This document shows positions 33,240 to 52,954 of a DNA stretch of 64,000 nt, piece after piece. A program made the translations under genes and the position numbers. The notes under the pieces are model-generated. The model was not told where the DNA came from. It saw only the letters and a program-made list of their open reading frames with translations, and did not search any database. The DNA is taken from NCBI RefSeq assembly GCF_013122565.1, contig NZ_CP053258.1; one strand, 5' to 3'. Position 1 is the stretch's first letter. Every line of letters starts with the position of its first letter. The DNA is from Escherichia coli. GTDB lineage: Bacteria; Pseudomonadota; Gammaproteobacteria; Enterobacterales; Enterobacteriaceae.

Positions 33240-34133
<894 letters not shown>

Positions 34134-34210: not shown

Positions 34211-34542
34211 GGAAAAGCCGAAGGGCGTCAACCGAAAAATGACCACTGATGGTGAGGAAATATCAGGGAAGTTGAAATTTTTTCATCTGAAGAAAAAAAC
34301 AGGGATACCAATGTTCAGTATGAGGTGAATATTGGGAAAATGCTGACGTTATTAATTTTATATTTATTTAAATGATGATTCATTCTGATTTATTTACTTA
34401 AAAAATGAATTATATTTTCAAATAAAACAAAAAGATACTTTAAGCCTCTCCGGCCTCCTCGCTTTTAATTTTGAACCACTTCAAACAAATAATAAATTCC
34501 TAAGAATTAAGTTGCAGACAAATTATACATCCCTCACGATAA

Positions 34543-34580
34543 GTAGAACGTTCTAGTAGAACGTTCTACTTATATAAATA
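34543..34580 (+). promoter_or_regulatory. Tandem perfect 12-bp palindromes (TAGAACGTTCTA x2) overlapping a -10-like TATAAAT; putative LacI-type operator and promoter for the EIICB operon
   Basis: gtagaacgttctag-tagaacgttctac at about 34543..34569, 55 to 80 bp upstream of the EIICB start, followed by tatataaat. The palindrome has the central CG and AACGTT core typical of LacI/GalR-family operators. Confidence 0.55.
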
Positions 34581-34623: not shown

Positions 34624-36123
34624 ATGGGTCTGATATCGAGTGTCGTAAAATCACTTTCTAAACTGTCGATGATTGGTCGCGCGCTGATGCTGCCAATTTC
34701 GCTTCTGCCTGCCGCCGGGTTGTTGCTGGCGTTCGGCGATAAATTCCACATGCCGTTGATGATGAATGCCGGCGGTATCATTTTTGATAACTTGCCGATG
34801 CTTTTTGCTATCGGTTCTGCCGTGGGACTGGCTTCAGAATCGGGTATTGCGGCGCTATCCGCAGCTGTATCCGTCTTTGTCACTAATATCACCATCGGTA
34901 CTGTCCTTGGCATCACACCAGAGATGGCCGGGCAAGGCGGTAAATATGCGATGGTGGTGGGGATCCCAACGCTGCAAATGGGCGTCTTCGGCGGCCTGAT
35001 ATGCGGGGTTCTGGCGGCGTGGTGTTACAACCGTTTTCATACCATGCAATTACCAGAATTCCTTGGCTTTTTCTCCGGCAAACGCTTCGTGGCTATCGCG
35101 ACGGCTTTTCTTTCCTTCATCCTTGGCTTGTTACTGCCCTATGTCTGGCAACATATTCAGTCGGGAATCGATGCCCTATCAGTTATCGTCAATGGTGATA
35201 ACCAGGCGGCATCGACCTTTATTTTTGGTGTGACAGAACGTGCGCTCATTCCGCTTGGCCTGCACCACATCTGGTATCCATCGTTCTGGTACTCTTTTGG
35301 TGATTACACCACCCAGGCAGGCCAAATGATCCACGGTGACCAAACAATTTGGTTCAAAATGCTGGAAGAAGGTGTGAAATCGTTCAGTAGCGACAGCTAC
35401 CATAACGCGGGTAAGTTTTTACAGGGCGAGTTCCCGCTCATGCTGTTCGCGCTGCCTGCGGCGTGTCTGGCGATGTACCATGAAGCACACACCAAAAATA
35501 AGAAAATTGCCGCCGGTATTCTGTTCTCTGCCGCATTAACCTGTTTCCTGACAGGTATTACAGAACCCGTTGAATTTACCTTTATTTTCGTGGCACCGGT
35601 ACTGTACGTATTCAACGCGATAATGGCTGGCCTCTCCTATATGGCGATGTATCTGCTCCATGCCCATATTGCAAAATCCTTCTCGGCAGGGCTTATCGAT
35701 TATATTTCGTTTGGCATCCTGCCATCATTTAACGGCTACGAAACCAACTTCCTGAGTGCCATTATTGTTGGCGTACCGATGGCGATTATCTATTACTTCA
35801 CTTTCCGCTTTGTTATTCGCCGTTTTGATGTGAAAACACCGGGTCGAGCCGAAAGCACCGTATCCGCTAACGATAAAACCGATGATGAACTGGCTACGGA
35901 AATTATCAGTCTGCTGGGCGGCCAACAAAATATCTCTTCCGTCGCATCCTGCATAACACGCCTGCGTCTGGAAGTGGCAGATAAGGATGTAGTTGATAAA
36001 GATGGACTGAACAATGTCGGTGCTCGTGGTGTGGTTTTTGTCGGCGATAACGGCATTCAGGTGATTTTTGGCGCACGTGCACAATTTATCGCGCAAACCA
36101 TGTCGACGATGATTGGCAAATAG
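34624..36123 (+). CDS. PTS glucose-family EIICB component, sugar specificity unknown; accessory
   Basis: About 499 aa from MGLISSVVKSLSKLSMIGRALMLPISLLPAAGLLLAFGD, preceded by a GGGGGA Shine-Dalgarno. A PtsG/MalX-like EIIC domain is followed by a C-terminal EIIB domain with the phosphorylatable Cys motif SCITRLRLEV. The ORF-track start at 34588 is probably too far upstream. No EIIA gene is adjacent. Confidence 0.85.
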   Translation: MGLISSVVKSLSKLSMIGRALMLPISLLPAAGLLLAFGDKFHMPLMMNAGGIIFDNLPMLFAIGSAVGLASESGIAALSAAVSVFVTNITIGTVLGITPEMAGQGGKYAMVVGIPTLQMGVFGGLICGVLAAWCYNRFHTMQLPEFLGFFSGKRFVAIATAFLSFILGLLLPYVWQHIQSGIDALSVIVNGDNQAASTFIFGVTERALIPLGLHHIWYPSFWYSFGDYTTQAGQMIHGDQTIWFKMLEEGVKSFSSDSYHNAGKFLQGEFPLMLFALPAACLAMYHEAHTKNKKIAAGILFSAALTCFLTGITEPVEFTFIFVAPVLYVFNAIMAGLSYMAMYLLHAHIAKSFSAGLIDYISFGILPSFNGYETNFLSAIIVGVPMAIIYYFTFRFVIRRFDVKTPGRAESTVSANDKTDDELATEIISLLGGQQNISSVASCITRLRLEVADKDVVDKDGLNNVGARGVVFVGDNGIQVIFGARAQFIAQTMSTMIGK

Positions 36124-36196: not shown

Positions 36197-37213
36197 TTGA
36201 AGAAAGTCAGCATAATTGATGTTGCCAAAAGCGCAGGAGTCTCGGTCTCTACTGTGTCGCTGGTCCTGCGCCAGAAAGGCAAAATTTCCGAGGCAACCAT
36301 CGAGAAAGTTCATGCTGCCATTACTGAGCTTGGCTACGTGCATAATGTTGCCGCCGCCAATTTACGCTCCAACACTTCAAATCTTATCGGTCTGATTTTA
36401 CGTGATTTTAGCGATAGCTTTTCCATCAAAGTGATGGCAAGTATTGTTCAGGAACTGGAAGCACAAGGATATATGGTTTTCCTCGGGCAACCACAGAACG
36501 AGCATGAACATCTTGAACGCTGTTTGCTTTCCTTCAAGCAACAAGGTGTTGCCGGAGTGATTTATCTGGCTTCCGATGCGCAGCGTGAAACCTTACCCGC
36601 GCTGATTCGCCAGTGCCCTCTTCCTCTTGTCGTCGCCTCACAATCCCCCATCAAAGATGAATGCAATCTGGTATTGCGCGACAACCAGCAGGCGGCAAGC
36701 CTTGCCACGCGTTATTTAATTGAGCGTGGACATCGTTACATTGCCTACCTCGGCGGCAGAGAAAGCGATCTTATCCGCCAACAGCGACTGGTGGGTTTTC
36801 GCCAGACCCTGGCAAAATTCGGTATTGCCAGTCGTGACGAGTTCACGCCAGCCTGTGACGATGATACATACGCCGCCAGCATGGCCACGCGCCAGTTGCT
36901 GGAGAATAACAATGCCATCACCGCCCTACTCTGCCATTCGCCCGAGGCCATGATTGGCGGTATCAACGGCATACATCAGGTGGGGCGCACCGTCGGGAGA
37001 GACATCTTTCTGACCCAGCAGGTGGCGCTAATTGGTTTTGAAGATATGCTGCACATCAATCTGACCTCGCCCGTTTTCACCTATGTCTCTTCCGCCAGTG
37101 AAGAAACCGGACGCCAGGCTGCTAATCTAATAATCCGCAAGTTAAAAGACCCGGAGCTGCAAATTCAAAGAATTGCGCTTTCCGGGCAACTGGTAGTGCG
37201 GGAATCGGCGTAA
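36197..37213 (+). CDS. LacI-family transcriptional regulator; accessory
   Basis: The N-terminal HTH (KKVSIIDVAKSAGVSVSTVSLVLRQKGKIS) is the LacI/GalR signature, followed by a periplasmic-binding-protein-like sugar-binding domain. The likely start is TTG or GTG at 36191..36197 after AGGGAG, giving about 338 aa; the ORF-track start at 36113 overlaps the EIICB gene. Confidence 0.8.
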   Translation: MKKVSIIDVAKSAGVSVSTVSLVLRQKGKISEATIEKVHAAITELGYVHNVAAANLRSNTSNLIGLILRDFSDSFSIKVMASIVQELEAQGYMVFLGQPQNEHEHLERCLLSFKQQGVAGVIYLASDAQRETLPALIRQCPLPLVVASQSPIKDECNLVLRDNQQAASLATRYLIERGHRYIAYLGGRESDLIRQQRLVGFRQTLAKFGIASRDEFTPACDDDTYAASMATRQLLENNNAITALLCHSPEAMIGGINGIHQVGRTVGRDIFLTQQVALIGFEDMLHINLTSPVFTYVSSASEETGRQAANLIIRKLKDPELQIQRIALSGQLVVRESA

Positions 37214-37336: not shown

Positions 37337-38818
37337 ATGAACACAGGGAATTTCGAGTCGATACAAATCATACTCGACGCGCAAGAGTGGCGTAGCCTGC
37401 CGCTGCATCTGCGTCTGTATCACGCTTTTCGCCAATTGGTGATTTCCGGCGCGTTGTCTGATGGCGCAAAGCTGCCGTCCGCTCGCGCACTGGCCCAGCA
37501 ACTTGGTCTTTCCAGAGATACCGTCGAAAATGCCTATTCCCAGCTTCAGCGCGACGGTTTTATGACCCGCAGGCAGGGAGCCGGGAGTTTCGCCAGCCGC
37601 CAGGGGATCCCGCAAATTCAGGGGCAGCACGCTCAGCCCCCCTCGCCCGGACAAGCACCGGCATTAACCGCCCGCTGGCAGCCGATTGCCGATCGCGCCG
37701 TCTCTTTCGATGCCCGCCAGATGCAGACCTTTACGCTTGGCCTGCCGGAAACGCGAAACTTCCCGCTAAACATTTGGCAGAACTTTTCCCGCCAGATCCA
37801 ACGTGAGCAGGCGCATACGCTGATGTTAAATAGCGATCCGCAGGGCGAGCCGGAGCTGCGCCAGCAAATTGCGCATTACCTTAATTTTGAACGCGGCGCG
37901 AAGGTAGATGCAGAGCAGATTGTGATTGTCAGCGGCGCACGGCAGGCGTTCTGGCTGTGCGGGCAACTGCTGGCAGAGGCCGGGCAATCAGTGGCGATGG
38001 AAAATCCAGGCTATCCCGGCGCGCGTCAGGCGTTTTCTGCCGCACAGCTTAATCTTCTTCCCGTTGAAGTGGATGACGCCGGGATCCGGGTGGATAAACT
38101 GCCGCCCGCACCGCTGGTTTACGTCACGCCGTCGCACCAGTTTCCTTCTGGTCATTTGCTCACGCTGGCGCGCCGTCACGCCCTGATTGCCTGGGCACAG
38201 GCGCACAATGCGTGGATTATTGAAGACGACTACGACAGCGAATTTCACTACACCAGCGCGCCCGTCGCCTGTCTGCAAGGGTTAGACTGCGAGCAACGCA
38301 CCCTGTATGTCGGCACTTTCAGCAAAACGCTCTATCCTGGTTTGCGCATTGGTTATCTGGTGGTGCCTGCCTCGCTGGCTGCGCACTTTGCCGCCGCACG
38401 TAATTTGCTTGATGGCGCAACGCCTGCGTTATCCCAACTGACGCTGGCGCGATTTATCGAGTCCGGTCATTTTGCCGCCCATATTCGCACCATGCGCAAT
38501 ATGTACGCGGTGCGACAGGCGAGCCTTGCAGAGGCTATTCATCAGCACTTAAGTGAATGGGTCACGCCAGTGGTGACATCCGGTGGATTACAAATGCCCT
38601 GCTGGCTGCATGAAGATGTTGATGAGCAACAGACGCTGAACGCGGCGCGCCGCGCCGGGTTAAATATCGCCGGGATGCGCCAGTTCTGGCTGACGCACCC
38701 CGCGCCCGCGGGCTGGCTGCTGGGATTCGCCGCCTTTACCCCCTACGAAATTGAGCAGGGAGTCAAGCGTCTGCGGGCTGCATTATGCGCTGAAAACGTG
38801 CGCCCAGCCGGGTCATAA
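37337..38818 (+). CDS. MocR/GabR-family transcriptional regulator (GntR HTH fused to a PLP aminotransferase-like domain); accessory
   Basis: 493 aa. The N-terminal winged HTH (LYHAFRQLVISGALSDGAKLPSARALAQQLGLSRDTVENAYSQLQRDGF) is followed by a long aminotransferase class I/II-like domain. Confidence 0.8.
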   Translation: MNTGNFESIQIILDAQEWRSLPLHLRLYHAFRQLVISGALSDGAKLPSARALAQQLGLSRDTVENAYSQLQRDGFMTRRQGAGSFASRQGIPQIQGQHAQPPSPGQAPALTARWQPIADRAVSFDARQMQTFTLGLPETRNFPLNIWQNFSRQIQREQAHTLMLNSDPQGEPELRQQIAHYLNFERGAKVDAEQIVIVSGARQAFWLCGQLLAEAGQSVAMENPGYPGARQAFSAAQLNLLPVEVDDAGIRVDKLPPAPLVYVTPSHQFPSGHLLTLARRHALIAWAQAHNAWIIEDDYDSEFHYTSAPVACLQGLDCEQRTLYVGTFSKTLYPGLRIGYLVVPASLAAHFAAARNLLDGATPALSQLTLARFIESGHFAAHIRTMRNMYAVRQASLAEAIHQHLSEWVTPVVTSGGLQMPCWLHEDVDEQQTLNAARRAGLNIAGMRQFWLTHPAPAGWLLGFAAFTPYEIEQGVKRLRAALCAENVRPAGS

Positions 38819-39869
38819 TCTCATACGGGATGGTGTCGCAGGCAGCCGCAACCTCTTCCAGCGTCTGGCCTGTGCCAATAAACTCCACCTTATCGCCCGC
38901 CGTCGGCGTGACGGCGCTGGCATCGACCATAAAGCTGTCCATACACACCCGCCCCAACACCGGTAACCGCACCCCGCGCCAGCATACGCCCGCCGGAGGA
39001 CGCATATTTCGCGGAACGCCATCCGCGTAACCCGCGGATATCGTGGCGATACGCAGCGGACGCGTGGCGGTAACCGTGCTGCCGTAGCCAACTGGCGTTC
39101 CGGCCGGAACATCCTGCACGCGCAGTATGGTCAGCGTCAGCGTAAAGACCGGTTTTAACGGCCTGGAAAACCACGGCTGGGTGACGCCAAACAGCGCAAT
39201 CCCCGGACGGCAGAGATCTTCCCGCCAGCCCGAGTGCAAAAACATCCCGCAGGAGTTCGCCAGCGAAAATCGGCTGCTGGGGAAAACCGTTTTTGCCTGC
39301 TGAAGTCGCGCGTGTTGCGCCATATTTAACGCATGATCCGGCCTGTCGGCGTTCGCCAGATGGCTGATGATATAATCCGGCGCAGGCCAGTTACGCTCAC
39401 GAAAAATCGCCGCCAGACGCATCAGTTGTTGCGACATCACGCCCAGCCGCGACATCCCGGAATCGAGCTGAATCATCACCGCACGCCGCTGCTGGCGCGT
39501 TTCCAGTAACGTAAGCCACGCCATCACCTGGTCTACGGAATTGAGCAATGGCGTGATCTGCTGCGCGTAACAAAATGCCATCGCCTCCGGCATAACCCCA
39601 TTAAGCACCACCACCCGCGCATCAGCGGGCAAGCATTTACGCAGCGCCACACCTTCAGAAAGCTGCGCGACAAAAAAGATCCGGCAGTTCGCCGCATACA
39701 GGGCGGGAGCAATCGCCTCCGCCCCCAGACCATAGGCATTCGCCTTCAACACCGCGCCACATTGCGCACGGGCAGCATGGCGGGCCAGGGTGCGATAATT
39801 TTCGACAATGGCGGCGAGATTGACGCACATAACGCCGCACGCCGCCTGAATTTCAGCAAGAGTTATCAT
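38763..39869 (-). CDS. Alanine racemase-family PLP enzyme (fold type III); accessory
   Basis: 368 aa. Contains the PLP-lysine motif [11 protein letters not shown] near the N-terminus and an Alr-like C-terminal beta domain. Overlaps the MocR 3' end by about 56 bp (convergent) and the downstream SHMT-like gene by 4 bp. Confidence 0.8.
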
Positions 39870-41104
39870 TGATAAGGCAACGGATAGCGGTTGGTTAGTT
39901 GTATTACTTTTTGCTCAATATCGGCGCAAATGTCTGCAATATCTGACGCGTTAATGGCCAGAATGATTTCACTTATCCAGTCAGCAATAAGCGCAAAGTC
40001 ATCCGCCTGCATCCCACGCGTGGTGCAGGCCGCGCTGCCAATACGAACGCCGGAGGTAATCGACGGCGGCTGCGGATCGCCCGGCAGGGTGTTTTTATTA
40101 ACCGTGATCCCCGCCAGTTCGAGAAAATACTCTACCTGTGCGCCGGTTAACCCCTGCGGGCGCAGGTCGATAATCCCCAGATGGCAATCGGTGCCGCCCG
40201 TTAACAGCGTCAGACCGCGCTGCGCCAGTTGCTGGCACATCGCCTGCGCATTGTCGATGACCTGCCCGGCATAACGTTTAAATTCCGGTTGTAATGCCTC
40301 GCCAAGCGCCACCGCTTTCGCCGCGATAACGTGCATCAACGGCCCGCCCTGCAAACCGGGAAAGATGGCGCTGTCGATTTTTTTCGCAAGCCGGGCGTCG
40401 TTGGTGAGGATCATGCCGCCGCGCGGCCCGCGCAACGTTTTATGCGTGGTGGTGGTGACCACATCAGCATACGCCAGCGGCGAAGGGAAACAGCCGCCCG
40501 CCACCAGCCCGGCAAAGTGCGCCATATCCACCAGCAAAATGGCGCCCACGGCATCGGCAATGCGGCGAAAACGGGCAAAATCATAGCGGCGTGGATAAGC
40601 CGATCCTCCGGCAATAATCAACCGTGGGCGCTCACGCAGCGCGATCATCTCGACTTCATCCATATCAATCAGGCCACTATGGGCATCGACGCCATAGTGA
40701 AAAGCGTTAAACCATTTGCCAGATTGATTGACCGGCGAACCGTGCGTGAGATGCCCGCCGCATTGCAGGCTCATGCCAAGAATTTTGTCGCCGGGTTTCA
40801 GCAACGCCAGATAGACCGCCTGATTCGCCTGGCTGCCGGAGTGAGGCTGCACATTGACGTAACGTGCGCCAAAGAGTTGCTGGGCGCGGGTTATCGCCAG
40901 CATCTCAACCTCATCAATAAACTTACAGCCGCCGTAGTAGCGATGCTGGTAATAACCTTCGGCGTATTTATTGGTTAACACCGACCCCTGCGCCGCGAGA
41001 ACAGCGGGGCTTACGAAATTCTCCGAGGCAATCAGTTCCAGCGACTACTGCTGGCGCTGTTGCTCCTGGTTAATCAATGCAAAAAGTGGATCGTTATTTA
41101 TCAT
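39866..41104 (-). pseudogene. Serine hydroxymethyltransferase (GlyA)-like PLP enzyme with an in-frame amber stop at codon 20
   Basis: Reverse-strand translation from ATG at about 41104 gives [50 protein letters not shown]..., then continues through the SHMT signatures HSGSQAN and [16 protein letters not shown]. The TAG is at about 41045..41047 where GlyA has Glu. The ORF-track entry is only the 371-aa reinitiation product from GTG at 40981. Confidence 0.75.
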
Positions 41105-41337
41105 GCGCTTCCCCCGAAAATTCATCATGCGATGATTTTCGCAGGGAAAACGTCGCCCGCACCCTGCCACTTTTTAGAATGAGCGCAGACCACCTATGTC
41201 GTTTTACTTAAAAGAAGAGGGAAGAAGGCTCCAGGCATCTCCATATGCGATTCTGGTTGGTAATACATCATATTCCAGCTGCTCTTATCTGCCTACGTTA
41301 TTGCATAGGCAGAATAAGGCAGCCTCAATACGTACTT

Positions 41338-42891
41338 TTACTTGATATATTTCACGCGCATACCGTTGATCTGTTCATCCGTGATGGTGTTACCCGCTTT
41401 GAAGTAATCAACCACGGCGTGATAAACGTAATAACCGCCCGTTGTGTTACGCGCTTTCCCTTCGGTAAAGGCGGTAAAACCATCTCCACCATCAGCAAGG
41501 AAACTCTGGGTGGCAATAGAATAAACTGTCGCATCTTCAATGGGTTTGCCATTCAGAGTCAGTGTGATTACCCGCTGACCAACCGGCTTGCTGCTGTCGT
41601 ACTTCATTTCCAGGCCTTTCGATACCTGTAAAACGCCATTACTTAAACTTGCGCCGTGTTCCATCAAACTGCGTAATTGTTTCCCTGTGAGATCCATCGT
41701 CACCAGTTCGTTGGGGAACGGGAAGGTACTGATGACGCCGCCCATCGTAATCGCCCCTGCGGGGATCTCATTGCGAATACCGCCAGAGTTGGTTAAGGCT
41801 ATTTGGGTGTTTTTACCCGCCGCTACCAGTAAAGCGTCAGCCGCCAGGTTCCCGAGGGAAGCCGATTCACCATAGGCACGTTTTAATTCAACCGGCGATT
41901 GCGCCACCGTTTGTTGCACCACTTCATCAAGCTTTTTATTCCAGCCGTCGATCACCTGTTTTGTTTGCGGATCGGGCTTCCACTCGTCGGCGTAAATGGT
42001 TTTCAGCTCGAAGTTTTTCACCGTAAAATCATGCGGCTTCTCTTTGTAGTCGAGGACCAGTTTGCCCACATCAATCCCGCCGCTGTCAGTGGAGAGGATG
42101 AGCGTATTGCCGACTTTAATCGGTTCCGGCGTACCCACATGTGCATGTCCGGTGATCAAAATATCCAGCCCTTTCACCTGACTTGCCGTCTGAATATCTT
42201 TATCCAGTGCGCGACGCACATCGGTCCCTCCCATACTGGACTGGCGGGCCGGAACACCTTCATGGATCAGGGCGACGGTCAAATCAACCTTGCCTTTAAG
42301 TTCATCGATATAACGTTGTAGCCATTTAATTTCATCGCGCGCTTCAATACCCACGCGCGTGGCAGCAGATACCGTATCGTTGAAAGCAAATACTCCGTGC
42401 AAACCTATAACGCCTATTTTCACGCCGTCTTTTTCGATGATGGTATATGGCTTATCCCAGAATGATTTACTGCTGTTCTGATAAAAAACATTGCCCTGCA
42501 CAATAGGGAATTTTGCCTGACTCAACTGTAATAATGTGTTGTCCCAGCCGTGGTCAAATTCATGGTTGCCTATCGTGACGGCATCAAACGGCATAGTATT
42601 CATAATATCGATAATAGCCTTACCTTTGGTCAGGCTGCTGATATATGGCCCGGTAAAATAATCACCCGCATCAAAAAACCATGTCGCTTTATTTTTTGCT
42701 TTTTCTTGCTTAACCAGCGTAGTGATATTTGCCCAGCCGCCAATATCCCGTTTACCGTCAGCGATCCACGGCACTTTATAAGGCTCGACATGCGCATGGA
42801 GGTCGTTGGTATAAATGATGGTGACATCTTTGGCGCAAGCCCAGAACGGCAATGTTAATGCGATACCCGCAGCAAGTATTTTAATTTTCAT
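41338..42891 (-). CDS. Secreted metallophosphoesterase / 5'-nucleotidase-family protein (UshA/CpdB-like); accessory
   Basis: 517 aa with an N-terminal signal peptide ([20 protein letters not shown]) and calcineurin-like phosphoesterase motifs ([36 protein letters not shown]), followed by a C-terminal 5'-nucleotidase-type domain. Confidence 0.8.
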
Positions 42892-43023
42892 AAATAGTCC
42901 CTTTCAGTGATTTAAAGGATTGCTACATTACGTTCTGAAAGAGTTATTTATGTGAGAGTAATCACATCCGCAGGGGATAGTTGCCGGACAAAATCAACGA
43001 CCTTGTGAAATCGTTGGTGATAT

Positions 43024-44154
43024 ATGTCAACTCTGTTTACGATTAATGCCTGCAAGTCGTTTGGTTGCCGTAATTTAGGGCAACCAACATCGACAGATTA
43101 CAGCTGGCCAGACTATCGACTGGGTTATCCGGCACTGCACTGTCGGGCATGTGGAAGTTACCCGCCGTTGTTTGACGAACAGCAATTTCGTGACTGGTTG
43201 TCAGTTCACTTATCTACTTTTGCAACTGAGAAAGGTCATTTCTGCCCGGTATGTTATGGCACAAAGACGATTTGTTATGGCCACAATCCACAGGGGTCGC
43301 AACGCATTCAATGTCGTAACTGCAAAAAAGTCTGGACACCTAAACAATATCAGAAAGAAATAACGCCTCCTGAAATAATCGAAACGGTTGCTCTTCTGGT
43401 GCCATTTCAGGGAGCCAGCAATGGGCAGAAACTGTATGTTTTAATCAGTTTTGATGCTCTTCGCGGTAATATTCTTCATCTTTCTACTAATTACACGCAG
43501 CATCAGGCTGGAGAAAGTCTGCATTATCGATACAGAGGAAATGCAGAACCAGAGTTACACGAGAGTAATATTGTACAACGCGTTGATATGCGCGAAGCAC
43601 AATTTCTACGCCGCAGTCAGTTTGATGAAATTCAGTATGGCAGCGCAGCGCTCAAACGCAATGCTAAAGGTATTATTCTGCGTCCGGTTATCACTGCACA
43701 CGGGCATTTCAGAGTACTGAATATTTTATTCCCTACAGTAAAAACACATGTAATTTCACACGAGTGTTTTTTAAGAGGTGCCATTATTACGGCATGGGCT
43801 GATCTGTTTCGCCAACAGCAAGGTGAAATTTGGTTTATTGAAGAGGAAATAGCTGACTATACCGATAATATGCCCTGGAGTTTTCAGGGAACAACATATC
43901 ACGGCTGGTGGAAAAATCAGTGGCAACTTTGGGGTCAGGGCAAAAATCGTAAAATGGTATGTGCATTAACAGGCGGAAATAACAGCAAAGCTGAAATGCT
44001 CTCTTTCGCAACCAGCAGACATTTTATCGACTGGCTACATAAACAAGCAGTATTTACTCACAGCACCCCGCTTTCCGCAGGGCGCGTTACGCAAATACTG
44101 CTTTCTCTGGCTCAGGATTACAACAACTGCGCCAGCCGGTTGATATCCGACTGA
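43024..44154 (+). CDS. Cys-rich protein with two N-terminal zinc-ribbon motifs (IS1 InsA-like finger), rest unknown; accessory
   Basis: 376 aa. Motifs C-x5-C...HC-x2-C and CPVC...GSQRIQCRNCKKVW; the latter resembles the IS1 InsA zinc-finger region (from memory). The last 12 codons overlap the metL 3' end on the opposite strand. Confidence 0.6.
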   Translation: MSTLFTINACKSFGCRNLGQPTSTDYSWPDYRLGYPALHCRACGSYPPLFDEQQFRDWLSVHLSTFATEKGHFCPVCYGTKTICYGHNPQGSQRIQCRNCKKVWTPKQYQKEITPPEIIETVALLVPFQGASNGQKLYVLISFDALRGNILHLSTNYTQHQAGESLHYRYRGNAEPELHESNIVQRVDMREAQFLRRSQFDEIQYGSAALKRNAKGIILRPVITAHGHFRVLNILFPTVKTHVISHECFLRGAIITAWADLFRQQQGEIWFIEEEIADYTDNMPWSFQGTTYHGWWKNQWQLWGQGKNRKMVCALTGGNNSKAEMLSFATSRHFIDWLHKQAVFTHSTPLSAGRVTQILLSLAQDYNNCASRLISD

Positions 44155-46550
44155 ATCGCCCCGGCGGTGACATCGCGCCCTGCGCCTGGTCCGCGGATCA
44201 CCAGAGGGTTATCGCGATACCAGCGGCTTTCGATGGCAAAGACGTTATCGCACGGCAGCAGTGATGCCAGCGGATGATCTTCACGCACCGCTTCCACGCC
44301 CACACGCGCTTTGCCGTTGGCATCGAAACGCGCCACGTAGCGCAGCACCAGCCCCATTTCGCGGGCCGCTTCCAGCCGTTGCAACATCTGCTCGTTGAGT
44401 TCATCGCCGTTTTCAAAGAAATGGTCGATGCTACCGCCTTCGCAATGGGCAGGCACCAGCGATTCCACGCGCACCTGATCCGGTTCGATGTCGTAACCCG
44501 CTTCACGCGCCAGAATCACCAGCTTGCGCATTACGTCTTTGCCGGAGAGGTCGTCACGCGGATCAGGCTCGGTTAAGCCCTGCTGCCACGCCTGATCCAC
44601 CAGCTCGGTAAACGGCACGCTACCGTCGAATTGCAGGAACAGCCAGGAGAGCGTGCCGGAGAAGATCCCACTGATCGACAAAATAGTATCGCCGCTGTCG
44701 ATCAGATCGCGCACGGTGTGGTTGATCGGCAAGCCCGCGCCGACGGTAGCGTTGTACAGCCAGTGACGCCCGGTTTTTTCGAAGGCGTCGTGGATCTGGC
44801 GATATTTATTGCTGTCGCTGGCTCCTGCCAGTTTGTTGGCGCTAATGACGTGGAAACCGTGGCTGGCGAAATCGAGATACTGGTCAGCAAGCTGCTGGCT
44901 GGCGGTAACGTCCAGCACCACTAAATCATCATACGGATGGGCGCGCATCCACAGGAACAGCGACTCTTCATCCTGCTCAACCGCTTCATCGTTGAAGAAG
45001 GCTAACGCGCGGCTGGCGTCCAGCCCGTCATAACTCAACAGGCTGCGGCGGCTGTCCACCACGCCTGCCAGCACAAATTCAAAGCCGGTACGTGCCGAAA
45101 GCGTGCTCTGCTCACGGGCGAACAGTTCCAGCCAGCGGGAACCGATATTGCCCTTGCCGAACAATACCAGGCCGATGCGTTTTTCCGCGCGGAAGACGGA
45201 CTGATGCAGCCCCTGAATCAGGCTTTCGGTCGGGCCGGTGCGCAGAACTGCCACCAGGCTGATGCCGTCATCGGACTGCCAGGTAAACTCGACCGGCTGG
45301 CCTTTCAGTTGCTGCCAGAAGCGGTGGCAATGCAGCGGGTTACGGGTGACACCCGCCCCGACCATCGCCACCAGCGCCAACCCCTGACGCAGGCGCAGCT
45401 CGCCAGGTAATCCCGCTTCGTCTAGGATTTTCAGCGCACTGTCGGCCACTTCTGAGGTGTAGCAAAATTGCAGCAACTGGCGATCGTTATGCACGCCAAC
45501 CGCCAGTGGGCGCACCTGCGCGCGTTTCAGGATCTGGTCGATCTCTTTATGCGCCAGTTTGAAATCCTGGCTGGCGGGCACCTGAAACTCAATCAAGCAG
45601 ACATCGTCGTGGCTGGTGACAATACGCGCACCAGTACCGGAGGCCAGCACGCGTTCAATGCGCGTGGAACCTTGATCCGGCGTGTAGCTACAGCGCAGTT
45701 GCAGGTCAATTTCGCTGCCTGATACCGGCTGTAAAGTACGGGCGTGGAGAACCGGAGCCGCCAGACGCGCCAGTTCGCTGGCTTCATCCAGACGCAGCAA
45801 CGGCAACAGGCAGGCATCTTTCACTTTACGCGGGTCGGCACTGTATACCCCGGCGACGTCGCTCCAGATGGTTACACGAGAAACACCCGCCAGCGCACCG
45901 ATTTGTGTCGCGGAGTAGTCGGAACCGTTACGCCCCAGCAGCACCGTTTCACCGGCGTTGTTACGGCTGATAAACCCGGTCACCACCAGACGTTTACCCG
46001 GATGTTGTACCAGTAGCTGTTGCAGCAACGGGTAAGAAAGCCCTTCATCAACCTGCGGCTGCGCAGCGCGTTCAGCGCGTAAAAACTCGCGGGCATCAAG
46101 CCAGGCCGCTGGCAGCCCTTGTTGATTAAGTACCGCAGACATCAGGCGCGCCGACCACACTTCACCATGGCCCACCACTTCCGCATACACCGCATCGTTA
46201 ATACCGCTGTCGAGCAGCGCCGCCAGGCGCTCAAGATCGCTGACAAAAGCGCTAATGAGGCTATCGGCTTCTTCAGCGGGTAGCAGACCGCTAATCAGAT
46301 CGCACTGATAGCGACGCAGCGTTTGTTGAACCTGATGCGCAGAGAGACGATCGGTCTGGCTTAGTTTCAACCAGTTAATCAACTGGTTAGTGGTGCTACC
46401 AGCGGCGGAAACCACCATCATATCGTCAGGCTGAGAGTACTCCGCCATAATGCCCGCGACACGCAAATAACACTTCACATCAGCCAGACTACTGCCACCA
46501 AATTTATGCAGTTGACGACCTTTCGCCCCTGCCTGCGCAATCACACTCAT
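44118..46550 (-). CDS. metL: Bifunctional aspartokinase II / homoserine dehydrogenase II
   Basis: 810-aa ORF MSVIAQAGAKGRQLHKFGGSSLADVKCYLRVAGIMAEYSQ... ending ...INRLAQLL. Confidence 0.96.
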   Translation of the reverse strand: MSVIAQAGAKGRQLHKFGGSSLADVKCYLRVAGIMAEYSQPDDMMVVSAAGSTTNQLINWLKLSQTDRLSAHQVQQTLRRYQCDLISGLLPAEEADSLISAFVSDLERLAALLDSGINDAVYAEVVGHGEVWSARLMSAVLNQQGLPAAWLDAREFLRAERAAQPQVDEGLSYPLLQQLLVQHPGKRLVVTGFISRNNAGETVLLGRNGSDYSATQIGALAGVSRVTIWSDVAGVYSADPRKVKDACLLPLLRLDEASELARLAAPVLHARTLQPVSGSEIDLQLRCSYTPDQGSTRIERVLASGTGARIVTSHDDVCLIEFQVPASQDFKLAHKEIDQILKRAQVRPLAVGVHNDRQLLQFCYTSEVADSALKILDEAGLPGELRLRQGLALVAMVGAGVTRNPLHCHRFWQQLKGQPVEFTWQSDDGISLVAVLRTGPTESLIQGLHQSVFRAEKRIGLVLFGKGNIGSRWLELFAREQSTLSARTGFEFVLAGVVDSRRSLLSYDGLDASRALAFFNDEAVEQDEESLFLWMRAHPYDDLVVLDVTASQQLADQYLDFASHGFHVISANKLAGASDSNKYRQIHDAFEKTGRHWLYNATVGAGLPINHTVRDLIDSGDTILSISGIFSGTLSWLFLQFDGSVPFTELVDQAWQQGLTEPDPRDDLSGKDVMRKLVILAREAGYDIEPDQVRVESLVPAHCEGGSIDHFFENGDELNEQMLQRLEAAREMGLVLRYVARFDANGKARVGVEAVREDHPLASLLPCDNVFAIESRWYRDNPLVIRGPGAGRDVTAGAIQSDINRLAQLL

Positions 46551-51773: not shown

Positions 51774-51928
51774 ACCGCTCACGATGCGAGGCGGATCGAA
51801 AAATTCAATATTCATCACACTTTTCATGAAAATTCTGTAACCGTTTTCACGCGCTATCTGCTAAAAATGTTGCCGATGTGAAGTAAACATGGATGTAGTA
51901 CGCCTGACGTGCCAGGCGAGGAGTGAGT

Positions 51929-52954
51929 GTGAAAGCGAAGAAGCAGGAAACTGCCGCGACCATGAAAGACGTTGCCCTCAAGGCAAAAGTCTCTACAGCG
52001 ACTGTCTCCCGAGCATTAATGAATCCCGATAAAGTCTCCCAGGCCACCCGTAATCGGGTTGAAAAAGCGGCCCGGGAAGTGGGTTATTTACCGCAGCCTA
52101 TGGGGCGCAACGTCAAGCGTAATGAATCCCGCACCATTCTGGTGATTGTCCCGGATATCTGCGATCCCTTCTTTAGCGAAATTATTCGCGGTATCGAAGT
52201 TACGGCGGCAAATCACGGATATCTGGTGCTGATTGGCGACTGTGCGCATCAAAATCAGCAAGAAAAAACCTTTATCGATTTGATCATCACCAAGCAAATT
52301 GATGGCATGTTGCTGCTGGGTTCAAGGCTGCCGTTTGATGCCAGCATTGAGGAACAGCGTAATCTGCCGCCGATGGTGATGGCGAACGAATTTGCACCGG
52401 AACTGGAGCTGCCTACCGTTCATATCGACAATCTGACCGCCGCATTTGATGCAGTAAATTATTTATATGAGCAAGGGCATAAACGGATTGGCTGTATAGC
52501 CGGTCCCGAAGAGATGCCGCTTTGTCACTACCGCCTGCAAGGCTACGTTCAGGCGCTGCGTCGCTGCGGCATTATGGTTGATCCGCAATACATCGCCCGT
52601 GGCGACTTCACCTTCGAAGCCGGAAGCAGAGCAATGCAGCAGCTACTTGATCTTCCACAACCGCCTACTGCTGTCTTCTGCCATAGCGATGTGATGGCGC
52701 TCGGCGCACTTTCTCAGGCAAAACGTCAGGGGCTGAAAGTCCCGGAAGACCTTTCCATAATCGGTTTTGATAACATTGACCTGACGCAATTTTGTGATCC
52801 GCCGCTGACAACCATCGCGCAGCCACGTTACGAAATCGGTCGGGAAGCTATGCTGTTATTGCTTGATCAAATGCAGGGGCAACACGTTGGCAGTGGCTCT
52901 CGTTTAATGGACTGCGAACTTATCATCCGGGGATCAACACGCGCGTTACCTTAA
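51929..52954 (+). CDS. cytR: LacI-family nucleoside regulon repressor CytR
   Basis: 341-aa protein from the GTG start (MKAKKQETAATMKDVALKAKVSTATVSRALMNPDKVS...). Confidence 0.93.
   Translation: MKAKKQETAATMKDVALKAKVSTATVSRALMNPDKVSQATRNRVEKAAREVGYLPQPMGRNVKRNESRTILVIVPDICDPFFSEIIRGIEVTAANHGYLVLIGDCAHQNQQEKTFIDLIITKQIDGMLLLGSRLPFDASIEEQRNLPPMVMANEFAPELELPTVHIDNLTAAFDAVNYLYEQGHKRIGCIAGPEEMPLCHYRLQGYVQALRRCGIMVDPQYIARGDFTFEAGSRAMQQLLDLPQPPTAVFCHSDVMALGALSQAKRQGLKVPEDLSIIGFDNIDLTQFCDPPLTTIAQPRYEIGREAMLLLLDQMQGQHVGSGSRLMDCELIIRGSTRALP

Follow-up and report, generated by a model that had tools for sequence, protein, structure and literature searches.

The activities of UshA, NadN, CpdB, YfkN and CD73 span UDP-sugars, NAD/NMN, cyclic nucleotides and dinucleotides, and ATP/ADP. 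Judged by its sequence, the enzyme considered here is an already known member of this group, namely an annotated accessory enzyme of Escherichia coli for which a crystal structure has been solved. The structural-genomics deposit PDB 3IVD/3IVE (E. coli 'Nucleotidase') is ~98% identical to it over residues 19-517, without gaps (E=0), and the roughly ten substitutions between them make the protein of our window, i.e. the whole 64-kb stretch of DNA that was analysed, an allelic variant. We take the deposit to be gene c4898 of strain CFT073, its structures presumably containing uridine and cytidine; the literature search yielded neither a publication nor enzymology for it. After 3IVD, the closest solved relatives come from organisms distant from E. 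coli, viz. the Thermus thermophilus 5'-nucleotidase 2Z1A (E 1e-46) and the CD73 and snake-venom 5'-nucleotidases (E 1e-35 to 1e-31). CD73 is a GPI-anchored dimer. E. coli UshA lies farther off (1e-23); it shares with the window enzyme the two-domain architecture, the metal ligands, the Asp-His catalytic dyad, the stacking Phe and signal peptidase I-type export, but the two are only 26% identical (K-12 UshA), the insertions of UshA are absent, and GHAH stands in place of the UshA GHSQ, which aligns a His (H251) with the Gln254 ligand.

The locus, the variable region between metL and metF, also has a described counterpart. A 2026 paper on ExPEC strains (PMC12928451) names this region GR31; its ORF 431 (1554 bp, UshA domain) corresponds by size and position to the nucleotidase gene, and nucleoside processing and transport are proposed for GR31 in silico, from sequence alone. 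Passages of that paper that deal with GR31 name only the Tsx-like and nucleotidase ORFs, the zinc-ribbon gene and the CRP box discussed below going unmentioned there. As presented in them, GR31 has two further nucleotidases and a Tsx-like channel, which the window lacks, carrying PTS/MalI-like and MocR/racemase/SHMT-like genes instead.

The enzyme is encoded in the window as follows:

41338..42891, minus strand: nucleotidase coding sequence, 517 aa, ATG start (ORF call, Pfam domains, PDB match)
42832..42891, minus strand: signal peptide, residues 1-20 (orthologue statistics, AXA rule)

The gene, as called in the initial annotation, is genuine, and its exact product sequence is found as WP_171460024.1 (E. 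coli). The protein contains the Pfam domains Metallophos (PF00149; E 2.4e-12, 48 bits against a cut-off of 21.5 bits) and 5_nucleotid_C (PF02872; E 1.5e-39, 136 bits against 23.6 bits). The complete metallophosphoesterase motif set claimed for it is borne out by alignment with E. coli UshA, in which D30, H32, D77, N109, H110, D113, H210 and H249 all correspond, and the DxH, GD, GNHE, H and GHxH motifs of the N-terminal calcineurin-like domain are each present. R373, F392, F464 and GGDG in the C-terminal part are invariant among the nucleotidase, UshA and the paralogues; R373 is the GGIR Arg, while F392 and F464 form the base-stacking aromatic pair, the residues looked for in a substrate-binding domain. 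Together these features place the protein in the 5'-nucleotidase (UshA/CD73) superfamily as a predicted dinuclear metallophosphoesterase. A dN/dS of 0.04-0.07 against three E. coli alleles indicates strong purifying selection. The protein falls under every NCBIfam equivalog cut-off, with 152.1 bits against 600 for UshA (NF007109), 133.3 against 436 for NadN (TIGR01530) and 101.9 against 486 for CpdB (NF006938). With scores so far below the cut-offs, and with so low an identity to K-12 UshA, it is not a recent duplicate, i.e. not the simple UshA/CpdB copy that the initial annotation had considered.

We favour, with a probability of roughly 0.72, the reading that this is a soluble periplasmic two-domain, two-metal 5'-nucleotidase, cleaved by signal peptidase I, which forms a unit with a divergent zinc-ribbon gene and a CRP box and is independent of its other neighbours. 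The protein would be exported by Sec and then cut by signal peptidase I after A18-C19-A20, without lipidation. The functional unit would comprise the nucleotidase gene, the divergent zinc-ribbon gene and, between them, 132 bp of control region with a perfect CRP box at its centre. With cAMP-CRP active, the nucleotidase would dephosphorylate nucleotides reaching the periplasm, and the freed nucleosides and phosphate would then be taken up by the cell; both the substrate range and the CRP dependence are what we infer here. In B2-type strains the unit is widened by two paralogous nucleotidases and a Tsx-type channel, and the PTS/MalI-like and MocR/racemase/SHMT-like modules would have entered at the same hot spot of recombination.

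The elements of this proposed unit upstream of the nucleotidase are:

42892..43023, unstranded: 132-bp divergent control region common to the nucleotidase and zinc-ribbon genes (conservation)
42951..42966, unstranded: candidate CRP site, a perfect consensus core TGTGA-N6-TCACA (motif scan)
42995..43016, unstranded: inverted repeat CAACGA-N10-TCGTTG beside the partner start, conserved across E. coli alleles and almost conserved in Enterobacter
43024..44154, plus strand: partner gene; its 376-aa product ('cytoplasmic protein') combines an RNase H-like core with two Cys4 zinc ribbons

The control region is conserved among E. coli alleles and in Enterobacter, and partly in Cronobacter. Its CRP core is the sole perfect match in the 64 kb, where 0.02 are expected, and its centre lies 67.5 bp from the nucleotidase ATG and 65.5 bp from that of the partner, upstream in both cases, a spacing that would be compatible with a class II promoter. 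The inverted repeat may serve as an operator or form a hairpin in a 5'-UTR. Inspection by eye revealed no convincing CytR half-sites, and the divergent regions of eight partner-family loci share no palindromic operator except the CRP-like box. A CRP-like site with 0-1 mismatch lies in the partner-adjacent intergenic region of all 11 loci scanned, such sites numbering only 1-4 per locus of 6.7-19 kb.

The partner gene, which shares 37 bp with the 3' end of metL, is paired with the nucleotidase in Salmonella, Enterobacter, Cronobacter and Vibrio as well; the conserved partner of the nucleotidase is this divergent zinc-ribbon gene, not the PTS or the SHMT/racemase genes. In 11 of the 12 contexts sampled, the partner-family gene has genes for nucleoside or nucleotide scavenging beside it, and the adjoining intergenic region nearly always contains a near-perfect CRP box; the exception (L017/L018) is without a nucleoside gene. 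Distant homologues lie beside another 5'-nucleotidase, beside NupC and DeoD, or beside DeoB, DeoD and a NupG-type permease; further contexts hold a porin with an e(P4) 5'-nucleotidase and PDEase_II, or a PNP_UDP phosphorylase.

Considering the question of what the enzyme acts on, release of transportable nucleosides would be its best functional reading. It is unlikely, if by no means negligibly so, that the protein is exported as described and that its physiological substrate is no simple 5'-NMP; UDP-sugars, NAD/NMN, 2',3'- or 3',5'-cyclic nucleotides, cyclic dinucleotides and extracellular ATP/ADP are then the candidates. The superfamily covers all of these activities, in UshA, NadN, CpdB, YfkN and CD73, and no curated equivalog was matched. 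The three paralogues of B2-type strains, at 57-68% identity to their counterparts in the window, suggest divided specificities, and the PDEase_II mentioned above places a class II cyclic-nucleotide phosphodiesterase in one distant partner context. Against this, the base-stacking Phe pair and the GGIR Arg of nucleotide-binding 5'-nucleotidases are kept, the deposited structures presumably contain uridine and cytidine, and the genes found with it encode nucleoside channels, transporters and phosphorylases. A literature search returned no assay data on nucleotide phosphoester hydrolysis by the nucleotidase.

Downstream, the nucleotidase is followed by these features:

41105..41337, minus strand: 233-bp gap from the nucleotidase stop to the SHMT-like ATG (alignment with Salmonella)
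41277..41324, minus strand: 48-nt stem-loop (folding, shuffles, strain comparison)
39866..41104, minus strand: inactivated SHMT-like gene (Pfam SHMT, E 1e-154; nonsense codon)

The minus-strand nucleotidase does lie upstream of the SHMT-like/racemase pair as had been annotated, across a gap that measures 233 rather than 234 bp. Only the ~90 bp of the gap next to the SHMT-like start (~41105..41195, including an ATGATG) are conserved with Salmonella, the distal part with the hairpin showing no such conservation. The hairpin noticed initially is real: the string ctgcctatgcaataacgtaggcag at 41289..41312 on the minus strand is the core of the 48-nt structure, which starts 14 nt past the nucleotidase stop codon, folds at -31.6 to -36 kcal/mol (z ~-6.7) and was equalled by none of 200 shuffles. 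Its place coincides exactly with the breakpoint, at 41324, beyond which homology to 'short-island' E. coli strains stops, and its sequence occurs in only three of 5426 E. coli genomes, with one compensatory change, U-A to C-G, in strain 2013C-4282. A REP-type repeat was considered and rejected because the 233-bp gap is single-copy, matching 3/5426 genomes once each.

The SHMT-like gene is a pseudogene here and belongs to a neighbouring module outside the nucleotidase unit. Codon 20 counted from the 41104 start is an in-frame TAG (41045..41047), a CAG to TAG nonsense change that the initial annotation overlooked. E. coli 2013C-4282 has CAG at this codon plus a different nonsense codon elsewhere, and the Salmonella orthologues are intact (412 aa, 94% identity). 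Programmed read-through or recoding at the TAG was also considered and is ruled out by the CAG of 2013C-4282 and the intact Salmonella copies, the pattern being one of independent recent pseudogenisations in two E. coli lineages. The ATGATG at 41123..41128 lies 24 nt upstream of the SHMT-like ATG (41104), in frame and with no stop between; it had been taken for a short leader and is rather an in-frame alternative start of the SHMT-like gene, not a separate leader ORF. Alternative starts also appear in the annotation of the Salmonella protein as 412, 419 or 420 aa.

It is improbable that the hairpin regulates the SHMT-like gene as an attenuator, processing site or riboswitch-like leader. Its stability (z -6.7), the compensatory change in 2013C-4282, its place upstream of the SHMT-like gene and the fact that it travels with that module would all fit such a role. 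However, Salmonella, with its genes in the same order, has no hairpin, only the proximal 90 bp being conserved; the start codon is at least 170 nt downstream, and a promoter-like match overlaps the 3' arm of the hairpin; no alternative pairing or leader peptide was found, the ATGATG being in frame with the SHMT-like gene. The Rfam scan of 40800..43200 (E<=1) returned only chance hairpin matches below gathering thresholds, and so no riboswitch or leader of a known family in the gap. Non-homologous stem-loops occur at the same post-stop position in all four versions of the locus, which fits a function at the 3' end of the nucleotidase transcript. Of the terminator, attenuator or processing site initially suggested, the attenuator or leader falls away, given a pseudogene downstream, an in-frame ATG-ATG and a hairpin missing from Salmonella. 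As for a terminator, no U-tract follows the hairpin, the sequence there being CUGGAAUAUGAUG, and a scan of the minus strand of the gap found no terminator-like site, so the hairpin does not qualify as an intrinsic terminator. We regard it as a 3' stem-loop at a module junction, not an attenuator, which may act as a transcript-end stabiliser or weak terminator.

Beyond the SHMT-like gene the window continues with:

34624..36123, plus strand: PTS EIICB gene (Pfam; PGAP names in strain UTME-7)
36197..37213, plus strand: gene for a MalI-like LacI-family repressor (Pfam; PGAP names in strain UTME-7)
37337..38818, plus strand: MocR-type regulator (GntR and aminotransferase domains) of the racemase/SHMT module (Pfam)
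38763..39869, minus strand: alanine racemase-family gene, member of the SHMT module (Pfam; annotation of the orthologous E. coli locus)

An 11-kb island query places the locus between metL and metF, with a median of one occurrence in each E. coli genome and never more than 2; in Salmonella it occupies the same site. Its contents vary. The nucleotidase is carried by 1844 of 5426 genomes, or one third of complete genomes; the PTS/MalI-like module by eight; the SHMT module, as traced through its side of the gap, by three; and the extended module of B2-type strains, in which two paralogous nucleotidases and a Tsx-type nucleoside channel are added to the unit, by 659 (12%). The full combination of modules in the window was found in none of the 5426 complete genomes. 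GC content is 0.44-0.48 in the nucleotidase and partner pair, 0.56-0.60 in MocR/Alr/SHMT and 0.49-0.51 in PTS/MalI-like.

That the nucleotidase and these neighbours form a single pathway or operon, in which it feeds the PTS permease or the SHMT-like and racemase enzymes, is a very improbable alternative: over 1800 E. coli genomes, as well as Enterobacter, Cronobacter and Vibrio, have the nucleotidase with neither module, and the GC content of the modules is unlike. It has in its favour that the nucleotidase shares its strand with the SHMT-like and racemase genes, across a 233-bp gap without a canonical terminator, and that the order nucleotidase, SHMT, racemase, MocR recurs between metL and metF in Salmonella, so that read-through co-transcription could occur; also, the PTS/MalI-like module directly abuts the nucleotidase in eight E. 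coli genomes, as against the four genes that separate the two in the window. Yet two E. coli lineages each carry an independently inactivated SHMT-like gene, with the nucleotidase still under strong purifying selection, and the conserved 90-bp block upstream of the SHMT-like gene is that gene's own. The link to a PTS permease drawn in the initial annotation finds no support in the count, eight genomes against 1844 with the nucleotidase; the permease is of the MalX sugar type with its own MalI-like repressor, and a periplasmic phosphatase is unneeded because PTS substrates are phosphorylated on entry. We conclude that the PTS/MalI-like and MocR/racemase/SHMT-like modules are independent and separable, and that their apparent links to the nucleotidase are an artefact of a recombination hot spot.

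The export signal had been called non-canonical, with either a signal peptidase I site or an atypical lipobox at its end. It consists of an n-region MKIK (K2 and K4 basic), an h-region of 13 residues and a c-region ACA. In a rule-based test (the -3,-1 or AXA rule) A18-C19-A20|K21 conforms, so that the end is ordinary, with a predicted cut after A20 and a mature N-terminus KDVTIIY. Among 85 distinct orthologue signal peptides, -1 is Ala in 81 and is followed by K/Q and then D/E, -3 is A/V/S/L/G, and -2 is variable, with Cys in only 31. The signal peptidase I site thus stands and the lipobox, whose Cys varies, does not: F-W-A-C does not match [LVI][ASTVI][GAS]-C with Cys at +1. Sec export and cleavage by signal peptidase I are predicted for the protein, with no lipidation, Cys19 being the variable -2 residue. 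That it is instead a membrane-anchored lipoprotein acylated on Cys19 of an atypical FWAC lipobox is scarcely credible, for all that a Cys directly preceded by Ala is found towards the end of the hydrophobic stretch and is kept in those 31 orthologues: the W two before the Cys is unfit for a PROSITE-style lipobox (of the PS51257 type), matched by three of the 85 orthologues and not by the window sequence; S, N, G, L, F or M replace the Cys in close and distant orthologues; the Ala that would follow a +1 Cys, at +2, is kept in 81 of 85; and the soluble construct crystallised as 3IVD/3IVE begins at residue 20.

An IS1-type transposase is the source of the unnamed family to which the partner belongs. 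This family has no Pfam model of its own and 118 representatives among 1.8 billion sequences; the window gene has a dN/dS of 0.09-0.14 (against Nissle and UTME-7), i.e. it is under purifying selection. An InsA-type zinc ribbon occurs across the family. Most members also have an HTH-like linker of ~50 aa, which the Escherichia clade has lost (20-21 aa, compared with 61-104 aa in other members); the forms of Escherichia, Salmonella and Enterobacter are all without it, which weakens a simple DNA-binding-regulator reading for that clade. Foldseek searches of the partner model against the PDB gave weak matches (TM ~0.2), all to RNase H-like folds. D144, D201 and E247 are the only conserved acidic residues, and, judging by the secondary structure of the model, the sites where the first two Asp would canonically stand seem to hold non-acidic residues. 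The partner gene does not fit a mobile element, which would be expected to occur in several copies, to have terminal inverted repeats and to vary in location within a species; its locus, as given above, has a median of one occurrence per E. coli genome.

A more tentative proposal, and on balance a doubtful one, is that the partner represents, in Escherichia, a hitherto undescribed family of IS1-type transposases that were domesticated and came to serve, alongside cAMP-CRP, as regulators or sensors dedicated to nucleotide- and nucleoside-scavenging genes. So conceived, the family would combine two Cys4 ribbons with an RNase H-like core that lacks the canonical first Asp, most members having an InsA-like HTH in addition, and would range over Enterobacterales and related gammaproteobacteria. 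Its candidate targets are 5'-nucleotidases, Tsx, NupC, NupG-type permeases, DeoB, DeoD and e(P4) phosphatases. If the proposal is true, a bacterial transposase turned transcription factor would control the nucleotidase gene.

Much of the value of the analysis is corrective, in that it describes a known accessory nucleotidase with an ordinary export signal, its PTS and SHMT/racemase links being hot-spot artefacts. An enzyme present in one third of complete genomes has modest relevance to the physiology of gut and extraintestinal E. coli, to which the 12% of genomes with the three-nucleotidase and Tsx version (659/5426) add. The partner gene is a lead worth following, as one of a transposase-derived family that in different genera is tied to CRP boxes and nucleoside-scavenging genes; were it a regulator, it would be a new class of regulator in a classic regulon and a clear example of transposase domestication in bacteria.

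The known systems with which the partner can be compared are IS1 and the CytR regulon. Unlike IS1 InsA/InsAB', the partner gene is single-copy and fixed at orthologous chromosomal sites; relative to them it also carries an extra N-terminal Cys4 ribbon and is under purifying selection, and its Escherichia clade has lost the HTH-like linker. The control of deo, udp, cdd, tsx, nupC and nupG by CytR and CRP offers an analogy only, that of nucleoside genes with CRP sites beside a dedicated cytoplasmic protein; CytR is a LacI-family repressor, to which the partner protein is unrelated in sequence and in fold.

The nucleotidase gene of the metL–metF island is real, but ordinary and already known; its product is predicted to be a periplasmic 5'-nucleotidase-family enzyme, processed by signal peptidase I, and its role, judged from sequence, is most probably CRP-controlled nucleotide-to-nucleoside scavenging. 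The lead worth pursuing is a transposase-derived zinc-ribbon gene, the divergent partner of the nucleotidase, which lies outside the coordinates covered by the initial annotation. The features concerned are:

33240..34130, metF
39866..41104, minus strand, SHMT-like gene
41105..41337, gap between the nucleotidase and SHMT-like genes, 233 bp (not the 234 bp first given)
41277..41324, 48-nt stem-loop (-31.6 to -36 kcal/mol, z about -6.7)
41338..42891, minus strand, nucleotidase coding sequence (ORF with ATG start, 517 codons)
42951..42966, perfect match to the CRP consensus core (TGTGA-N6-TCACA), midway through the divergent region
43024..44154, plus strand, partner gene ('cytoplasmic protein', 376 aa), divergent from the nucleotidase
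44118..46550, metL

Pfam places Metallophos at residues 24–252 of the nucleotidase and 5_nucleotid_C at residues 334–477, both far over the gathering score. When aligned with UshA of K-12, a pair of E. coli paralogues and the Cronobacter, Vibrio and Providencia orthologues, the nucleotidase keeps all the UshA metal ligands and the Asp–His dyad (D30, H32, D77, N109, H110, D113, H210 and H249), has H251 at the position of UshA Gln254, and retains the GGIR-motif Arg, both base-stacking Phe and the GGDG motif; the initial annotation was correct in claiming a complete motif set, because all aligned catalytic and substrate-binding residues are present. The exact protein is WP_171460024.1 (E. coli), whose 90% cluster holds 3465 sequences, including E. 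fergusonii, E. albertii and Kluyvera. A PDB sequence search found chains 3IVD/3IVE, deposited as "Nucleotidase", with ~98% identity to residues 19–517 (E=0), which we take to come from structural-genomics work on c4898 of E. coli CFT073, in complex with uridine and cytidine; besides this structure, the closest solved relatives are the Thermus 5'-nucleotidase, CD73 or venom enzymes. A simple UshA or CpdB duplicate is ruled out by the 26% identity to UshA and by NCBIfam scores below the cut-offs (UshA 152 vs 600; NadN 133 vs 436; CpdB 102 vs 486), no equivalog cut-off in NCBIfam being reached. The dN/dS is 0.04–0.07 against three E. coli alleles, and the gene is therefore maintained.

The N-terminus reads MKIK, then 13 residues, then ACA followed by KD, an end that had been called non-canonical and either a signal peptidase I site or an atypical lipobox. 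Only the signal peptidase I site withstood comparison of 85 distinct orthologue signal peptides, anchored on the TNDxH motif: position -3 is A, V, S, L or G, -1 is Ala in 81 of the 85 (the rest S, T or G), +1 is K or Q in 78, and +2 is D or E, with N in four. This is the pattern of the classical -3,-1 rule for signal peptidase I. Position -2 varies (C 31, L 12, S 11, F 9, G 8, M 6, N 3, others), and close Enterobacter orthologues have WASAKD or WANARD at the same site, so that the Cys before the predicted cleavage site would be merely a tolerated -2 residue. The lipobox reading is rejected because the orthologues keep the -3,-1 rule, because FWAC does not match a lipobox pattern in the style of PROSITE PS51257, and because the crystallised construct of 3IVD/3IVE starts at residue 20.

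The hairpin noted in the gap proved to be the core of the larger 48-nt structure, which starts 14 nt past the stop codon, exactly at the end of homology with short-island E. coli strains. E. coli strain 2013C-4282 keeps it with one compensatory pair; no U-tract follows the stem and no Rfam family matches it. It is best read as a stem-loop at the 3' end of the nucleotidase transcript, where two modules meet. Of the terminator, attenuator and processing roles proposed for it, an attenuator is unlikely, as the stem-loops found at this post-stop position in Salmonella and in short-island E. coli differ from it and are unrelated, and the sole part of the gap conserved with Salmonella is the ~90 bp abutting the SHMT-like start (~41105..41195). 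A repeated element is ruled out by the occurrence of the gap in only 3/5426 E. coli genomes.

The conserved ~90-bp block, which includes an ATGATG (41123..41128) and a GCAGGG...CCCTGC stem and has no Rfam match, is a candidate promoter and operator for the SHMT/racemase module, on which MocR might act. The supposed short ATG-ATG leader is no separate ORF, as it shares frame with the SHMT-like ATG at 41104. Salmonella annotations of 419 and 420 aa are the lengths expected with either ATGATG codon as start; 41104 is the likelier start because a Shine-Dalgarno-like GGGGGAA, seen by eye, precedes it. The window's SHMT-like gene is a pseudogene through an in-frame TAG at 41045..41047. That codon is CAG in 2013C-4282, whose copy is instead interrupted later by another nonsense codon, and in Salmonella the gene is intact (412 to 420 aa); the two inactivations are independent and recent, with a dN/dS of 0.07.

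From metF to metL the island holds genes for a PTS EIICB, a MalI-like repressor, a MocR regulator, an alanine-racemase-family protein, the SHMT-like protein, the nucleotidase and the 'cytoplasmic protein'.

Distribution of island modules among 5426 complete E. coli genomes
Nucleotidase segment: 1844
Two further nucleotidases plus a Tsx-type channel as an extension (Nissle, LF82, others): 659
PTS/MalI-like module, there directly adjoining the nucleotidase: 8
SHMT-side gap: 3
Full module combination of the window: 0

GC content also sets the modules apart (nucleotidase pair 0.44–0.48; MocR/racemase/SHMT 0.56–0.60; PTS/MalI-like 0.49–0.51). The nucleotidase/SHMT-like adjacency is old, because Salmonella has the same gene order as the window (metL, partner gene, nucleotidase, intact SHMT, racemase, MocR, metF), and dispensable, because it is missing from most E. 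coli and from Enterobacter, Cronobacter and Vibrio. Functional coupling of the nucleotidase to the PTS permease, as initially suggested, finds no support, given 8 genomes with the PTS module vs 1844 with the nucleotidase. In a 2026 genome paper (PMC12928451) this locus already appears as GR31, with a suggested part in processing and transporting nucleosides.

Several smaller observations concern the island. Immediately before the PTS EIICB gene (~34542..34569), the palindrome (G)TAGAACGTTCTAC occurs in two overlapping copies, which look like an operator of the neighbouring MalI-like repressor (LacI family). The MocR-type regulator and racemase genes overlap convergently by 56 bp (38763..38818), and Salmonella locus L010 has its MocR gene annotated as two pieces (181 and 315 aa). 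A gene for a periplasmic arylsulfotransferase (PF05935) adjoins metJ in that locus (L010 1..559) and lies within 1–2 genes of the nucleotidase pair in Enterobacter/Cronobacter (L005 5043..6569, L006 9615..11141).

The nucleotidase and partner genes share the 132 bp upstream of both, and the CRP core there is the only perfect one in 64 kb, with 0.02 expected. A TAATGT hexamer lies at a spacing from this core that would be compatible with a class II promoter. All 11 loci scanned have a CRP-like site with no more than one core mismatch in the intergenic stretch beside the partner-family gene, against a background of two such sites in the whole window and 1–4 per 6.7–19 kb locus; Nissle has a second such site ahead of its downstream nucleotidase operon. 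An ORF at ~51923..52954, ~9 kb from the nucleotidase, should be cytR by synteny with E. coli locus L001 (priA then cytR); cytR encodes the classical nucleoside-regulon repressor.

The partner homologue and nucleotidase orthologue keep the same divergent arrangement in four other genera, with amino-acid identities of the partner of 70% in Enterobacter, 37% in Cronobacter and 30% in Vibrio, Salmonella being the fourth. An exhaustive search returned only 118 representatives of the partner family at E<=0.001. Among distant members, sampled at 22–34% identity, the neighbours are another 5'-nucleotidase (loci L014 and L021/L022), NupC and DeoD (L011/L012), DeoB, DeoD and a NupG-type permease (L013), a porin, an e(P4)-family 5'-nucleotidase and a class II phosphodiesterase (L015/L016), or a PNP_UDP phosphorylase (L020), the key neighbours being confirmed by NCBIfam scores over cut-offs. 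Nucleoside or nucleotide-scavenging genes thus adjoin the family in 11/12 distinct sampled contexts, L017/L018 being the sole case with no such neighbour.

At its other end the partner gene converges on metL with a 37-bp overlap of 3' ends (44118..44154). In B2 strains a Tsx-like gene and a pair of nucleotidase genes separate the two, and because of this the window junction looks like a deletion or alternative junction. Against the Nissle alleles, amino-acid identity is 77% for the partner vs 98% for the nucleotidase, implying a recombination breakpoint close to the divergent region.

The window's partner protein matches no Pfam family, and the family has no Pfam model of its own. It combines two Cys4 zinc ribbons with an RNase H-like core of IS1-type transposase derivation: Zn_ribbon_InsA is matched by 16/54 members, and the family profile aligns with IS1 InsAB' residues 4–105 at 96.4% probability. 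The AF2 model is very confident (pLDDT 95.1, pTM 0.93). Conserved residues comprise eight Cys (the two ribbons), R197, H228, H246-E247, W296 and W300, with the acidic D144, D201 and E247; on the model, the canonical first Asp seems to be absent. One reservation is that an HTH-like linker (~50 aa), retained by most members, is lost in the Escherichia/Salmonella/Enterobacter clade. An active IS is ruled out by the single copy, synteny with Salmonella and purifying selection (dN/dS 0.09–0.14). The interest of the zinc-ribbon gene lies in its consistent link with nucleoside-scavenging genes and CRP boxes, and its product is probably a domesticated IS1-type transposase with a putative role as regulator.
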